NCBI GenBank assembly: GCA_965247095.1 | Contig: OZ251997.1 | Coordinates: 1,120,001-1,184,000 of the forward strand | Direction of reading: 5' to 3' | Source: Candidatus Multivorans sp. | GTDB lineage: Bacteria > Acidobacteriota > Thermoanaerobaculia > Multivoradales > Multivoraceae | Length of the DNA: 64,000 nt | Shown here: piece after piece, positions 1,928 through 17,934 of the stretch | How positions within the stretch are numbered: position 1 is the first letter of the stretch | How the letters are laid out: the number at the start of each line of letters is the position of its first letter | Position numbers and translations under genes: made by a program | Notes under the pieces: generated by a model | Databases searched by the model: none | The model's input: the letters and a program-made list of their open reading frames with translations, nothing else | Told to the model about the DNA's origin: nothing

Positions 1928-3679
1928 CTACTTGGCACTGTCGGTTCCGGTCCCCTCGTCGCGCGCAATTCGTCTGGCGTCCTCGACCCTGACCACGGGA
2001 CCACCGGCGTACGTGTCCCATTCCAGCGCCCCGAGCACTTCGAAGAATCCGTCGAGGTCGGACAGTCGTTCCCGCCAGCCCCACCCGAGCAACTGCACGG
2101 GTCGGCCGGACTCGGAATCCCGACTTCCCGCACGCTTGACACGCAGCTTGACGTGGTCCTTGCCGAACTCGCGAACCGGACCGCTCCGCTCCAGCGGTCC
2201 GAGCCGGATCAGCGGTCGGCGATTCCCTTCACCATGCGGCTCCAACCGCGCGAGTTCGCGGAACAGGCCTCGGTCGACCTGTTCCGGAGAGAGCTCCAGC
2301 TCATACTCCCGACGCCGCACCAGCACCTCCGGCGCCCAATCGGCGGCCTCTTCCATCTCGGCCCTCAGAGCCGGCAGTTCCGACACGCCCACAGACAGGC
2401 CAATAGCCTGGGGATGCCCGCCGAATCGCTCCATCCGCGCCTCGAAACCGGTCATGAAGGAGTGGAGATCGACACCGGGGATGCTGCGACCTGAGCCGGT
2501 GCCCGTCTCGCCGTCGACACCAAGCAGGATCACCGGACGATGGAACTCGCGGGCAAGGCGTCCGGCGGCAATGCCGACCACGCCCCGATGCCAGTCCTGA
2601 CTCCAGGCCATGAGGATCCCGGGCCTCTGTCCGTCGGCCGAGAACGCCTCCGTCGCCTCCGCTACCACCCGCCGTTCTTCGCCCTGCCGCTGGCGGTTCA
2701 GAGAGTCGAGCTCCCTCGCGAGGCGATCGGCCTCGGCCGTGTCGCGGGTCAGCAGCAGACGGAGAGCCAGATCGGCGCTGGCCAGTCGGCCGGCAGCATT
2801 GAGCCTCGGTCCCAGCCGAAAGGCGACTTCCGTAGACGACACCGCGCCCTTGATGCGAGCGACCCGCATCAGGGCCCGGAGCCCCGGAGACCGTGACTGC
2901 GCCAGCGCCTGCAGGCCGAGCGCGGCGATGACACGGTTCTCGCCCACCAGGGGCACCACATCCGCGATCGTGCCGAGGCATGCGACGCGCAACAGCGCAG
3001 CCAGCGGCTCTTCGCGACCGCTCCGACGCAGCACTGCCTGCGCCAGCTTGAACGCAAGTCCGGCGCCGCAAAGGTGGCGAAAGGGGTAGGTACAGCCATC
3101 CTGTTGAGGATTGACCTGGATCGCCTGGGACGGCAAGCCGCTTCCGGCAACGTGATGATCGGTCACGACCACGTCCATTCCTTGCCTGATCGCCTCCTCC
3201 ACCGCCTCGTTCGAGGTCGTACCGCAGTCAACCGTGACGATCAGCGAGGCGCCCGCGCGCTTCGCCTTCTCGACCTGAACGACCTGAAAGCCGTATCCCT
3301 CGGTCAACCGGTTCGGAAGGATCGGAACGGCATCGGCAGCCAGGGCCCGCAGTACAACGGTGAGCAGCGCGCAGGCGCTCACTCCGTCGACGTCGTAGTC
3401 CCCCACAACGGCGATGGTGCCGCGGTCGCGGCAGACGGCAAGCACCCGCTCGGCCGCCTCCTCCATCCCTCTGAGCAGGAAGGGGTCGTGCAAGCCACTG
3501 CGGTTCGGTCTGAGGAAGGTCTCCGCCTCCGCCTCCGTCTCCACTCCCCTGCGGGCAAGGGGAGCGGCAAGCAGCCCGTATCCCGCTGCCAGGAGTCGTG
3601 CGGTGGGCTCGGGAGCGGGCTTCTCCGCCCACTCCACCGTGTCATTGCGGTGGCCGCCGCCTTGCTCCGGCATCGTCAC
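1928..3679 (-). CDS. recJ: Single-stranded-DNA-specific exonuclease RecJ
   Basis: Motifs GDYDVDG, TVDCG, TDHH, GTIADVVPL, PRLNAAGR, GGH. Confidence 0.97.
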   Translation of the reverse strand: MTMPEQGGGHRNDTVEWAEKPAPEPTARLLAAGYGLLAAPLARRGVETEAEAETFLRPNRSGLHDPFLLRGMEEAAERVLAVCRDRGTIAVVGDYDVDGVSACALLTVVLRALAADAVPILPNRLTEGYGFQVVQVEKAKRAGASLIVTVDCGTTSNEAVEEAIRQGMDVVVTDHHVAGSGLPSQAIQVNPQQDGCTYPFRHLCGAGLAFKLAQAVLRRSGREEPLAALLRVACLGTIADVVPLVGENRVIAALGLQALAQSRSPGLRALMRVARIKGAVSSTEVAFRLGPRLNAAGRLASADLALRLLLTRDTAEADRLARELDSLNRQRQGEERRVVAEATEAFSADGQRPGILMAWSQDWHRGVVGIAAGRLAREFHRPVILLGVDGETGTGSGRSIPGVDLHSFMTGFEARMERFGGHPQAIGLSVGVSELPALRAEMEEAADWAPEVLVRRREYELELSPEQVDRGLFRELARLEPHGEGNRRPLIRLGPLERSGPVREFGKDHVKLRVKRAGSRDSESGRPVQLLGWGWRERLSDLDGFFEVLGALEWDTYAGGPVVRVEDARRIARDEGTGTDSAK

Positions 3680-6636: not shown

Positions 6637-7152
6637 TCAACTGGCCTTGGCCTTGGAGATCTTTTCGAGGCTGCCCGTGAGCGCCTTCTCGACCAGGACC
6701 TCCGCGTCGTCTTCGCCGATCTCTCTGACGTGCAGAACCTCGCTGACGATGAAGTACCTCGCCTTCTCGTACATCTTCTTCTCGCGGAACGACAGGCTCT
6801 TCTTCTGACTCACCAGGCGGAGGTTCTTGAGCACCTGGGCGGCGTCGGTCAGGGAACCGGTCCGCATCTTGTCGAGGTTCTGCTTGTAGCGGCCCTTCCA
6901 GTCCTTGTAGACATCGATGTTGCCGTCCTCGATCAACCGCAGCAGGTCGTTGATCTCCCGCGACTTGGCCAGACGCCGCAGGCCCACCCGGTCCAGATTC
7001 TCCTCGGGCACCATCACCTTCGAGTGGTTGCCCAGCACCCGCAGGTGGTAGTAGGTTTGCTTCTCCCCGCCGTCCGGGGCGCTTAACGCGATGAGTTCCA
7101 CCACGCTCACGCCGTGGTTGGGGTATACGACCTTCTCACCGACTCGGAACAC
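6637..7152 (-). CDS. carD: CarD family transcriptional regulator
   Basis: FRVGEKVVYPNHGV, VMVP, GLRRL, DWKGRY...DKMRTG. Confidence 0.93.
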   Translation of the reverse strand: MFRVGEKVVYPNHGVSVVELIALSAPDGGEKQTYYHLRVLGNHSKVMVPEENLDRVGLRRLAKSREINDLLRLIEDGNIDVYKDWKGRYKQNLDKMRTGSLTDAAQVLKNLRLVSQKKSLSFREKKMYEKARYFIVSEVLHVREIGEDDAEVLVEKALTGSLEKISKAKAS

Positions 7153-7317: not shown

Positions 7318-7346
7318 ATTGTAGCCGAGAGGGCTCAGAACGTCAA
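7318..7346 (-). promoter_or_regulatory. Sigma70-type promoter for carD
   Basis: Minus strand TTGACG-17 nt-TACAAT about 165 nt upstream of carD. Confidence 0.75.
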
Positions 7347-7497
7347 GCCGTTCCCGCCCCATTTGCGCCTACTTCGAGCCGCCGGCTCTAAGTCGTTGAA
7401 GGCGCAGACTTTGCAGCTCCAGCACTGGAAGTTGCGCCGTGGCGGTGCTACTCTGCGCCACCGTCGCCGCGGCACCCGCAGGGGTGCGGATTTCCAT

Positions 7498-7584
7498 GCC
7501 GGAGTGGCGGAATGGCAGACGCAGGGGACTCAAAATCCCCCGCCCCAAAAGGGCGTGTGGGTTCGACTCCCACCTCCGGCACCA
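7498..7584 (+). tRNA. tRNA-Leu(CAA)
   Basis: GCCGGAG/CTCCGGC acceptor stem, anticodon arm GGGGA-CT-CAA-AA-TCCCC, long variable arm, GTTCGAC T-loop, encoded CCA. Confidence 0.97.
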
Positions 7585-7852
7585 CCGCAGCCCTTGAAGG
7601 GTCCCCTGCGGGGACTCCAATGACCCTGCGCCCCAAAAGGGCGTGTGGGTTCGACTCCCACCTCCGGCACCAGCACGGCCTCTCACGGGTCCCCTGCGGG
7701 GACTCCAGTAACCCCTGCGCCCTGAAACGGGCGTGTGGGTTCGACTCCCACCTCCGGCACCAGCGCGGCCTCTCACGGGTCCCCTGCGGGGACTCCAGTA
7801 ACCCCTGCGCCCTGAAATGGGCGTGTGGGTTCGACTCCCACCTCCGGCACCA
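7585..7852 (+). repeat. Three tandem 88-90 bp units, each ending in the tRNA-Leu 3' half plus CCA
   Basis: GGGCGTGTGGGTTCGACTCCCACCTCCGGCACCA ends at 7584 (tRNA), 7672, 7762 and 7852. Each unit also has the hairpin GTCCCC-TGC-GGGGAC (7601-7615, 7689-7703, 7779-7793). Confidence 0.95.
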
Positions 7853-7853
7853 G

Positions 7854-7868
7854 CACCGCTCTGCGGTG
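7854..7868. terminator. Short GC hairpin between the tRNA array and the convergent TolC gene
   Basis: CACCGC-TCT-GCGGTG; no U-tract, so terminator function is uncertain. Confidence 0.35.
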
Positions 7869-7872
7869 TGCG

Positions 7873-9591
7873 TCAGATGTCAGCTTCAGCGTCGTCGACG
7901 AGTTCGATGCCCTTCTGGTCCAGGAGCATGCCGATCGCCTTGAAGTAGGCCAGCAAGGCCCGCCGGTAGCCCGTGACCGCCTCGACTTCACGGCTTCGCG
8001 CCGCGGTCAGATCCTCCTGGATTTCGAGCACCTGGAAGCTCGTCCAGAGTCCGTTCTGGTAGCGCTTCTGGGCTGCATCGAGGTTCTTCTCGGCCAGTTG
8101 TCGCGACACCCGGGCGGAGTCGATCTGCTTGCCCGCGGTCTCCACCGCGCGGGAGGCGGTACGGACCTCGGTCTGGATCGAGAGCATCACGTCCCGGAGT
8201 TCGAGGCGTCCCTGATCCAACGCCAGTTCGGCGATCCGGCTCTGGGCCCTGGCCGACCGGTTCTGAAGCGGCTTCGACAGGTTCAGGCCGACGTTCCAAC
8301 CCTCGAAGACCTGGCCCAGGATCCCGTTGTAGAACTGGTCGAGAGTCGAGAGGTAGTCGAGCGAGTCGGTCCGAAGGTACTCCTCGGGGCACGGCGAGAA
8401 CAAGTCGGCGATGCTCGGCGTACCGGGCCGCTCGCACGTCATGCGCTTGCCGCCGAGCGCGTTGCGCCCGTAGCTCACGCTCAGGTTGAGGTCGGGCCGC
8501 CCCTGGTTCTTCAAGAACTCCGAGTCGATCCCCAGGGACGCGATCCGAAGCTCCTGCCGGTCGACCTCGGCCCGCCGATCAAACGCCCAGTTCAGCGAGG
8601 CCTCCAGGTCGATGACGACGCGGGCAATCTCCGGTGAGGTTGTCGGCGTGATCTCCAGATCCCAGAATGACGCCTCGTTCAGATTGAGCAACCGCCTGAG
8701 CTCGTCCGCCGCGTCCTGGATCTGCGCCTGCACCCGGATGATCTCCTCCTCCCGGGTGGCGATACCGGCCTCGCTCTGCACGAGTTCGAGCGGCGCCAGC
8801 GTACCCACCTCGATCTGGATCCGGTTCATCTCGTGGAGTTCCTCGGCCAGGGCGAGACTCTCCTCGGCAACCTTGAATTGCTCCAGGGCTTCCACCAGAG
8901 CCCAGTAGCCGTTTGCGACCGTCTGCACCGTGTCGACGACCTGGACCTCCAGGTCCTCCAGGCTGATGTCGCTGTTGAGCCGCGCCACCGCGAGATTGCG
9001 CTCCGTGGTCTTCTTGCCGCGGTTCCTGAGCAAGGGCTGGTTGAAGGCGACCGTCAGGCTGGACCGCAAGCTCGGGTTGATGTCGGAGAAGCGGGAGTTC
9101 GACTCGGAACGGTTGTTCTGGAAATTGATCGTGAACTCGCCGCCCGACGAGATCGGCTGCCGCAGCTCGACGTTCGTGGTGATCGTCTCGTTCTGCGTCA
9201 CCAGGGCGCCGTCGAGTTGAGAGGCCGACGGCCGGCTGTCGCTGTTCACACTGCTGTCCACGCCAAGCACAAGATCGTAGATGCCGTACTCCTGGTTGAT
9301 CCGGAACAGCGACTGCGACCGCTGGTAGCGCTGCACCAGCAGAGCGAGATTGTTCTGCAGGGCAATCGCGATCGCTTCGTCGAGGTCCAGGCGAAGCTGT
9401 CCGTCCGCGATGTCCAACTCGGGCACGACCGGTGCGGTGATCCAGGTCGAGCCCACCTGCACCTGCGCTCCCGCCGGCGCTGTCGACGCCACAGGCAGAA
9501 TGAGAACGGCACAGAGCGCGGTGATCATCACCGCGGGCGGCAGCAGCCCACCACGGGCTGCTAGGACTCGCTGTACTGGAAACAGGTTCAT
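7873..9591 (-). CDS. TolC family outer membrane efflux protein
   Basis: Signal peptide, LDLDEAIAIALQNN, two OEP-like halves, C-terminal RYQNG...VLEIQEDL...YFKAIG; start may lie slightly downstream. Confidence 0.9.
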   Translation of the reverse strand: MNLFPVQRVLAARGGLLPPAVMITALCAVLILPVASTAPAGAQVQVGSTWITAPVVPELDIADGQLRLDLDEAIAIALQNNLALLVQRYQRSQSLFRINQEYGIYDLVLGVDSSVNSDSRPSASQLDGALVTQNETITTNVELRQPISSGGEFTINFQNNRSESNSRFSDINPSLRSSLTVAFNQPLLRNRGKKTTERNLAVARLNSDISLEDLEVQVVDTVQTVANGYWALVEALEQFKVAEESLALAEELHEMNRIQIEVGTLAPLELVQSEAGIATREEEIIRVQAQIQDAADELRRLLNLNEASFWDLEITPTTSPEIARVVIDLEASLNWAFDRRAEVDRQELRIASLGIDSEFLKNQGRPDLNLSVSYGRNALGGKRMTCERPGTPSIADLFSPCPEEYLRTDSLDYLSTLDQFYNGILGQVFEGWNVGLNLSKPLQNRSARAQSRIAELALDQGRLELRDVMLSIQTEVRTASRAVETAGKQIDSARVSRQLAEKNLDAAQKRYQNGLWTSFQVLEIQEDLTAARSREVEAVTGYRRALLAYFKAIGMLLDQKGIELVDDAEADI

Positions 9592-17577: not shown

Positions 17578-17645
17578 TTCGGACCGGGATAGTACCAGTT
17601 TCCTCCACTCCCCACAGAGGAGCTCTTTCCGCCGTGGCGGCGGCG

Positions 17646-17730
17646 TGCCGGAGGTGGGATTCGAACCCACAAGCCCTATAGAGGGCGGGGGATTTTAAGT
17701 CCCCTGCGTCTGCCGTTCCGCCACTCCGGC
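17646..17730 (-). tRNA. tRNA-Leu(TAA)
   Basis: Reverse complement folds as a cloverleaf with anticodon TAA and long variable arm; CCA not encoded. Confidence 0.95.
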
Positions 17731-17743
17731 GTATCAGGAAGTC

Positions 17744-17818
17744 TGGAGGCGACGGCCGGATTCGAACCGGCGAATAAGGGTTTTGCAGACCCTCGCCTTA
17801 CCACTTGGCCACGTCGCC
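17744..17818 (-). tRNA. tRNA-Cys(GCA)
   Basis: GGCGACG acceptor, AGGGT-CT-GCA-AA-ACCCT anticodon arm, encoded CCA. Confidence 0.95.
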
Positions 17819-17859
17819 TTGGGGGACTTCGGCGCCGGTCTCGAGCCGCGCGGCTCGCA

Positions 17860-17934
17860 TGGAGCGGGAAACGGGATTCGAACCCGCGACCCCAACCTTG
17901 GCAAGGTTGTGCTCTACCACTGAGCTATTCCCGC
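17860..17934 (-). tRNA. tRNA-Gly(GCC)
   Basis: GCGGGAA acceptor, anticodon GCC, encoded CCA; first gene of the conserved Gly-Cys-Leu cluster. Confidence 0.96.

Follow-up and report, generated by a model that had tools for sequence, protein, structure and literature searches.

Three head-to-tail units, each ending in a copy of the 3′ part of a leucine tRNA, directly follow the tRNA-Leu(CAA) gene in the window, i.e., the whole 64,000-nucleotide stretch of contig OZ251997.1 that was analyzed, from an uncultured soil or sediment bacterium of the genus-level group Candidatus Multivorans (Acidobacteriota). We think it fairly probable that this array belongs to the tyrT/rtT kind of tandem repeats located distal to tRNA genes, that it originated in a segmental duplication, that concerted evolution has kept its tRNA-derived parts uniform, and that it carries a hairpin of the tRNA 3′ trailer. 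Of all the parts of a unit, only the non-tRNA hairpin at the junction looks conserved past neutral expectation.

The array and its parent tRNA gene

A 25-nt string comprising the T-arm, the acceptor strand, and ACCA occurs in four copies without a mismatch, ending at positions 7584, 7672, 7762, and 7852, and thus repeats at periods of 88, 90, and 90 bp. Tandem Repeats Finder reported a period of 90 with 3.5 copies, 92% matches, and a score of 515 at 7547-7856. These periods, the anatomy of the units, and the variable loops CAAAA, TGAAAC, and TGAAAT were borne out as they had been given in a preliminary description of the window. The sole further match to the 25-nt string in the window, with three mismatches, lies in tRNA-Leu(TAA) at 17643-17667. 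The parts of the array are located as follows.

7498-7584, plus strand: tRNA-Leu(CAA), called by ARAGORN and by Rfam (tRNA, 56.7 bits); functional, with CCA encoded, and the parent of the repeats
7585-7672, plus strand: unit 1, 88 bp, variable loop CAAAA as in tRNA-Leu(CAA)
7673-7762, plus strand: unit 2, 90 bp, variable loop TGAAAC
7763-7852, plus strand: unit 3, 90 bp, variable loop TGAAAT
7601-7615, strand not assigned: junction hairpin of unit 1, GTCCCC-TGC-GGGGAC
7689-7703: junction hairpin of unit 2, lengthened to eight pairs by RNAfold
7779-7793: junction hairpin of unit 3, read in the sequence and folded by RNAfold

Every unit in the window has the same order of parts: a 16-nt spacer, the GTCCCC-TGC-GGGGAC hairpin, 12-13 nt of decayed anticodon loop and 3′ stem strand, and then a tRNA block made up of the variable arm, the T-arm, the acceptor 3′ strand, and ACCA. 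The final 34 nt, CCA included, are the same in tRNA-Leu(CAA) and in units 1-3, and the non-tRNA DNA amounts to 28-45 bp per unit. Units 2 and 3 differ at two positions, and the post-hairpin segment of unit 1 has no differences from that of the unit in a relative, L109. The right hairpin arm with the following TC equals tRNA-Leu(CAA) positions 27-34, and the left arm with the loop, GTCCCCTGC, is the exact reverse complement of nucleotides 24-32 of the same tRNA. A 20-mer spanning the hairpin was found in only three copies (7600, 7688, and 7778) in the 64 kb at up to three mismatches, the expectation from shuffled sequence being 0.01.

The units had been described as missing the 5′ acceptor strand and the D-arm, and this was upheld: ARAGORN called the parent gene only, and against Rfam the units gave tRNA-Sec matches of just 22-25 bits where the gathering score is 47. 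No conserved partner for the acceptor strand CTCCGGC was found, the first 7 nt of the units being variable among genomes. With neither a paired acceptor stem nor a D-arm cloverleaf, the units are not canonical tRNA genes. Nor are they whole tRNA genes that have decayed, because the 25 nt before GGGGAC match the 5′ half of the tRNA at 7/25 positions (counted by eye), which is approximately random. CRISPR-like, type III antitoxin-like, ribozyme, and other Rfam families yielded no match at threshold. The CCA of the units might be taken as a sign of reverse-transcribed mature tRNA, but it carries no information because five of the six tRNA genes in the window encode CCA. The only one that does not is tRNA-Leu(TAA), a member of a Gly(GCC)-Cys(GCA)-Leu(TAA) cluster at 17645-17934 (minus strand); it has its acceptor and most of its T-arm in common with tRNA-Leu(CAA), and no repeats lie behind it.

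Copy number and exchange with the tRNA gene

Species-representative genomes were scanned with the last 30 nt of the tRNA, giving at least 120 loci, 80 with 3-kb and 40 with 300-nt flanks; statements on relatives here and below refer to the 120 loci listed. Sixteen held at least two copies of the 22-nt core, and in 12 of those 16 the units were of the window type, sharing its hairpin and its converging TolC-like gene and repeating at 88-94 bp. The hairpin pattern did not occur in the other 108 loci. Arrays are present at the same place in 13 of the 17 genomes of one clade of genus level, Candidatus Multivorans, and the copy number, which the preliminary description had proposed to check among relatives, runs from zero to four.

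No unit: clade members L063, L065, L068, and L117
One unit: L012, L036, L045, L055, L066, and L109
Two units: L008 and L043
Three units: the window, L111, and L016 (third unit broken by N)
Four units: L030 and L042

Over the C-terminal 480 residues, the TolC-like protein is 83-99% identical inside the clade and 54-56% identical to that of L006, which is the nearest syntenic outgroup and has no unit. All four genomes without units are at tips of the tree, beside relatives that bear arrays. The closest relative of the window, L065 (95%), is one of them, and its tRNA is directly followed by the post-array flank of the window; in both L065 and L063, the counterpart of the flank hairpin at 7853-7869 stands immediately 3′ of the tRNA. 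The four unit-less members look like clean deletions. Full-text literature searches found no published description of such arrays in Acidobacteriota and none of tandem half-tRNA repeats with a junction hairpin.

That the array is an assembly artefact, a possibility the preliminary description had raised, or else a wholly neutral product of slippage under no constraint, is scarcely credible. Short-read assemblies do stumble here, as the run of N inside the third unit of L016 (a short-read assembly) illustrates, and the stems are without covariation. However, the same type of array was present in 12 other assemblies, the 13 assemblies are independent, seven of the arrays come from single 4-5-Mb chromosomes, and the units differ by substitutions; the array is thus not an artefact of assembly. 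The invariance of the hairpin while its flanks diverge argues in turn against wholly neutral slippage.

Similarity is highest between neighbors in an array. L042 has an A A B B′ arrangement, its first two units being identical and its last two almost identical, and the four units of L030 are near-identical. The most decayed units are at the ends of arrays (L042 unit 4, L030 unit 1, and L008 unit 2). This is the pattern expected from unequal exchange. Variable loops differ widely among genomes, yet in 7 of the 13 genomes at least one unit has the variable loop of its own tRNA, versus 2.1 expected when the tRNA loops are shuffled among genomes. Only 23 of 100,000 shuffles reached seven (P ~0.0002, phylogeny not corrected for). 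Because units share the variable loop with the tRNA of their own genome, the 3′ block has been exchanged with the live tRNA gene, and the sharing points to unequal recombination or gene conversion as the means.

Exchange with the live gene alone accounts for the unchanging tRNA-derived stems. The preliminary description had read stems kept while loops drift as structural selection, and for the tRNA-derived arms that reading was not sustained. Among 19 pairs assessed on 22 distinct units, 14 never vary and none changed on both sides, shuffled controls being equal to the data; the former anticodon stem pairs in 90% of cells, and none of its five pairs showed a two-sided change. Without compensatory change, invariant stems provide no evidence either way. 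Homogenization would have lapsed in L008, neither of whose units retains the T-arm or a complete acceptor strand; both units keep the hairpin stem, with TGAA as the changed loop. The part of the claim that stood concerns the non-tRNA hairpin, which hardly varies although the sequence around it has diverged.

The junction hairpin and the origin of the units

All 22 distinct units, drawn from 13 genomes, have the same 6-bp stem in the junction hairpin. The comparison below uses a single unit from each of the 13 genomes, together with third codon positions of the neighboring gene from 16 genomes.

Spacer: mean pairwise identity 0.38; 0/21 columns invariant
Left hairpin arm and loop: 0.97; 8/10 columns invariant
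Right hairpin arm plus TC: 0.98; 7/8 columns invariant
Post-hairpin segment: 0.63; 2/11 columns invariant
Variable loop: 0.36; 1/6 columns invariant
Third codon positions, last 71 codons of the neighboring gene: 0.73; 17/71 invariant

Overall, the hairpin is invariant in 15 of its 18 columns. Because the tRNA holds no direct counterpart of the left arm and loop, their constancy cannot stem from exchange with it, which leaves the junction hairpin as the only element that appears to be under selection. It lies 16-21 nt after each ACCA, between two convergent genes. Since it has this position, and since it survived in the decayed L008 units, the hairpin probably acts in the RNA of the tRNA 3′ trailer, where it would stop transcription or else fix and protect 3′ ends. 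Release of CCA-ended units is plausible by analogy with the rtT precedent. The hairpin was also considered as a dispersed palindromic repeat (REP/BIME-like), but the window holds three copies in 64 kb, all in the array, and the 120 loci hold it in arrays only.

It is unlikely, in our estimation, that the units are themselves selected as functional CCA-ended small RNAs, resembling tRNA halves and cut from the tRNA transcript, that would titrate tRNA-binding enzymes or act through the 9-nt complementarity of the 5′ arm to tRNA positions 24-32. Consistent with such RNAs, RttR of E. coli ends at a repeated CCA, 13 of 17 clade members have at least one unit with losses at the tips only, and the hairpin, the variable stem, and the C run after the former anticodon loop are kept, the pseudo-anticodon stem pairing in 90% of cells. 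The complementarity of GTCCCCTGC to the tRNA is exact, and 8/8 of it is kept in L008. However, none of the 19 + 5 pairs has undergone compensatory change, the acceptor 3′ strand is without a conserved partner and faces unit starts that differ among genomes, the T-arm and acceptor have decayed in L008, copy number moves between 0 and 4 under no visible constraint, and the variable-loop sharing of units with their own tRNA explains the constancy of the tRNA parts without selection.

A bolder proposal, which we regard as something of a long shot, is that the module is an RNA device. A ~90-nt CCA-ended half-tRNA-like RNA would be cut from the tRNA-Leu transcript; its 5′ arm, GUCCCCUGC, would have two alternative pairing partners, the GGGGAC of the same unit and positions 24-32 of tRNA-Leu(CAA); and the RNA would serve as a dosage-variable regulator or sponge of tRNA-Leu(CAA) or of tRNA-handling enzymes. 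If true, this would be the first comparative handle on the function of tyrT/rtT-type repeats.

The tandem-duplication reading that we prefer would run as follows. A single tandem duplication in the ancestor of Candidatus Multivorans may have copied a segment that begins where the anticodon stem of tRNA-Leu(CAA) begins and extends ~25 nt beyond the gene, with a junction that placed CCCC of the flank beside GGGG of the tRNA, either by chance or because the duplication was favored for it. Copy number would then have moved between 0 and 4 through unequal homologous recombination or replication slippage between perfect direct repeats of 34-55 bp, and exchange with the live tRNA gene would hold the 3′ block of each unit identical (concerted evolution), leaving the spacer, the variable loop, and what was once the anticodon loop to drift. 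A site-specific recombinase would not be involved. The junction hairpin would be retained by purifying selection, most likely as an RNA structure in the tRNA 3′ trailer, and the units would be co-transcribed with the tRNA and possibly freed as ~90-nt CCA-ended RNAs, like E. coli rtT RNA.

Traces of such a duplication were sought in the DNA behind the last unit. The post-array flank of L012 repeats the unit start at 13/15 positions at the same offset, left hairpin arm included, which 4 of 500 shuffles reach; that of L016 repeats it at 9/9, reached by 1 of 500. As judged by eye, L066 and L055 have a match to the window spacer, CACGGCCTC, in their final flanks. A fold-back origin of the hairpin was considered as well, but beyond the stem itself only the 3-nt loop adds to the reverse-complement match with the tRNA, for which the chance is ~1/64, and this is not conclusive.

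Several points weigh against the duplication and its trailer hairpin. The invariance of the right arm may be owed to the tRNA, leaving only the left arm and loop (8/10 columns) free to testify to selection, and array-less relatives do without the hairpin altogether. As a canonical intrinsic terminator the hairpin fails: it is GC-rich, but it is followed by TCC... rather than by a U-tract, and a terminator consensus scan gave no plus-strand match. Of 12 genomes, only two have a final flank that resembles the spacer significantly; in the other 10, the short flank yielded no significant match. A single origin is not proven because the spacer (0.38) has diverged more than third codon positions (0.73). 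In addition, L111, which belongs to the second sub-clade, has the post-hairpin segment of window units 2 and 3 without any difference, and in L111 one spacer type is joined to two post-hairpin types; such a mixture requires that the polymorphism be old, that species have exchanged DNA, or that recombination have taken place within the hairpin.

Mobile elements, neighbors, and comparable repeats

Repeated copies of a tRNA 3′ end could instead be relics or products of site-specific integration, i.e., stacked attL/attR sites, a minimal non-autonomous element, or decoy att sites, and the preliminary description had proposed a repeatedly inserting mini-element or decoys. Integrases that target tRNA genes reportedly cross over at anticodon-stem or T-loop positions, as Williams is said to have set out in 2002. 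The copied part does begin at the anticodon stem here, and at the T-loop in L027 and in E. coli, and unit types are common to sub-clades (L111 and the window). In the passages of PMC9897764 that bear on the matter, tRNA 3′ duplication is the signature of such elements, and integrated elements are the usual explanation given for partial tRNA copies. The attL/attR copies treated there resemble the array in being a direct repeat of the tRNA 3′ part with the intact gene at one end, but they differ from it in that the array is without integrase, element body, or attP and its copies are head-to-tail at 90 bp, not kilobases apart.

The absence of an integrase from the window, as originally stated, was confirmed: none of the 45 window open reading frames (ORFs) scanned has an integrase or transposase domain. 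No recombinase was detected in 39 ORFs located 3′ of the tRNA in 32 related loci, 14 of the 39 being the TolC-like gene; these 39 were searched out of 60 listed, the 21 left out being second or third ORFs farther from the tRNA. Twelve ORFs around the L005 and L027 arrays also contained no integrase or transposase. A blastn comparison of the array with 50,697 phage and 72,556 plasmid records, made for attP, returned only generic T-arm-sized matches in 62 phage records and one plasmid record (best coverage 43% and 38%, respectively). There is no kilobase-scale element body between the repeats, so that the supposed element would measure just 28-45 bp of non-tRNA DNA, and no genomic island occupies the site in any of the 17 clade loci. 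The anticodon-loop overlap between tRNA and units is not conserved, and the final flank of L012 repeats spacer and left hairpin arm, as plain tandem duplication predicts. With no integrase or transposase in the ORFs scanned, no attP in the phage and plasmid records, and no hairpin outside arrays in the 64 kb or the 120 loci, the mini-element and the decoys found no support, and we judge integration of any of these forms quite improbable.

Far less credible still is a hairpin-guided single-stranded DNA element, IS200/IS605-like but devoid of a transposase, that inserts 3′ of ...ACCA and whose right end (the T-arm hairpin plus 11 nt ending in ACCA) recreates the target, so that arrays accumulate. 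The geometry alone fits: one hairpin is subterminal, 16-21 nt in from the left end, another lies 11 nt from the right end, and the unit ends may resemble those of IS608. However, no Y1 transposase or TnpB domain was found in the window or related loci, the hairpin lies at a variable distance (16-21 nt) from the left end, neither the rest of the 64 kb nor the other 108 loci contain a further copy of it, and the 3′ part follows the resident tRNA.

The tandem array is bordered by the following features.

7472-7487, plus strand: leader hairpin GCACCC-GCAG-GGGTGC, 10 nt 5′ of tRNA-Leu(CAA), including CCCGCAGGGG
7853-7869: native 3′ flank hairpin GCACCGC-TCT-GCGGTGT (RNAfold), between unit 3 and the stop codon of the convergent gene
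7873-9591, minus strand: convergent gene for a TolC-like outer-membrane efflux protein (Pfam OEP, 3e-38)

The array thus sits between two convergent genes, tRNA-Leu(CAA) and the minus-strand TolC-like gene, and an OEP gene is also 3′ of the tRNA in 14 related loci. The neighborhood is of a housekeeping character (recJ, priA, carD, purC, alr, and dnaB), with a G+C content of 68%. A leader hairpin is located ~10 nt 5′ of the tRNA in every relative, but its sequence differs in each (window, L109, L036, L045, L016, and L042), with arms such as GCACCC/GGGTGC, GCACGCC/GGCGTGC, and CCGCGCGAGC/GCTCGCGG; it looks like a structure kept via compensating changes. The preliminary description had noted an inverted likeness of CCCGCAGGGG at 7475-7484 to the unit hairpin. 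The sequence is indeed there, but because the leader hairpin differs in relatives, the likeness is not conserved. A promoter-like site at 7318-7346 on the minus strand (TTGACG, 17 nt, TACAAT; 10/12 matches) faces the divergent carD-like gene at 6637-7152. In the post-array flank of L016 (~3278-3320), a 17-nt tandem duplication consists of ACCGCACCACCGCTA plus two variable bases, twice, and suggests an intergenic spot prone to slippage.

Repeats of E. coli tyrT that carry the tRNA 3′ end have been known since the late 1970s, and the tyrT transcript undergoes Rho-dependent termination inside the repeat. In E. coli K-12, the repeats distal to tyrV amount to 3.1 copies of a 178-bp unit, and every unit closes with the final 19 nt of tRNA-Tyr, AATCCTTCCCCCACCACCA; the comparison with tyrT drawn in the preliminary description was correct in this respect. 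Annotated RttR ends at 1287066, 178 nt beyond the tyrV 3′ end at 1287244, and thus at the first repeated CCA. Each of the 178-bp units (L121:905-1463) also holds CTTCGACCAAGGTTCGACT, the decayed 5′ side of the tRNA-Tyr T-arm plus the loop, ~85 bp from the 19-mer, and because every unit has it, the E. coli units, too, look as if a more extensive 3′ portion of the tRNA had been copied and subsequently broken up. A passage of 10.1101/2024.07.17.603846 describes the mode of action of rtT RNA as still unknown.

Judged from its sequence, the Multivorans array is the same kind of object as the tyrT/rtT repeats, differently built. In both, direct same-strand tandem repeats start right after the tRNA gene, each unit terminates in the 3′ end of that tRNA, CCA included, the tRNA-derived part has decayed at its inner boundary (tyrT units still have a piece like the 5′ side of the T-arm), and no recombinase is required as explanation. 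For the E. coli repeats, an RNA that ends at the repeated CCA, RttR, is annotated. However, the period is shorter here (88-94 bp versus 178 bp), the exact tRNA block is longer (34-44 nt plus a decayed anticodon arm versus 19 nt), an invariant GC hairpin is present at the junction, and no small ORF is conserved; at unit lengths of 88-94 bp, the reading frame changes from genome to genome. The two also belong to different phyla, have no sequence similarity, and differ in that the copy number here ranges from 0 to 4 across a whole genus.

Two further arrays behind tRNA-Leu(CAA) were encountered in metagenome-assembled genomes (MAGs). L005:3031-3436 (Actinomycetes MAG, CAVRWE010000003.1) has two tandem units of 202 and 204 bp that comprise the tRNA from the 3′ strand of the D-stem to the 3′ end, anticodon arm intact, each preceded by a hairpin with a 13-bp stem, ACGTGGGGGAACC-ATG-GGTTCCCCCACGT; its final flank contains a decayed spacer copy that includes the hairpin region, the score being reached by 22 of 500 shuffles. 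L027:3031-3132 (Acidobacteriota MAG, CAVUHC010000003.1) has one 102-bp unit that ends in the last 21 nt of the tRNA (T-loop onward), the same type of boundary as in the E. coli tyrT repeats, and its final flank repeats the unit start. Like the window array, both are tandem copies of a tRNA 3′ part plus flank in which the last copy is the most decayed and no integrase is nearby, and L005 shares the strong hairpin directly 5′ of each partial tRNA copy. Their periods (202/204 and 102 bp) and left boundaries (3′ strand of the D-stem and T-loop, respectively) are different, however, and their spacer and hairpin sequences are unrelated.

Two other loci were not accepted as tandem repeats because their second tRNA-like pieces are 1.2-1.6 kb away. 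L028 (Acidobacteria MAG, JADGOB010000210.1) has two tRNA-Leu-like 3′ pieces 1.55 kb apart, at 160-233 and 1755-1785, neither called by ARAGORN; the first resembles tRNA-Leu(CAA) without the D-arm, and the ORF between them encodes SET and epimerase domains, not an integrase. L073 has a second tRNA-Leu(CAA)-like sequence ~1.2 kb downstream, diverged in acceptor and T-arm and also not called by ARAGORN.

The two further independent cases among the loci listed suggest that tandem 3′ tRNA repeats arise repeatedly in bacteria. For annotation, the array is a caution that partial tRNA copies need not mark integrated elements. Candidatus Multivorans provides a second case, unrelated to E. coli, in which one genus offers many natural variants: zero to four copies, several types of unit, and one lineage in decay. 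Such variants separate the constancy that comes from recombination with the tRNA from that which comes from selection. Only the junction hairpin would fall into the latter group, and it is thus a concrete target for transcript mapping.

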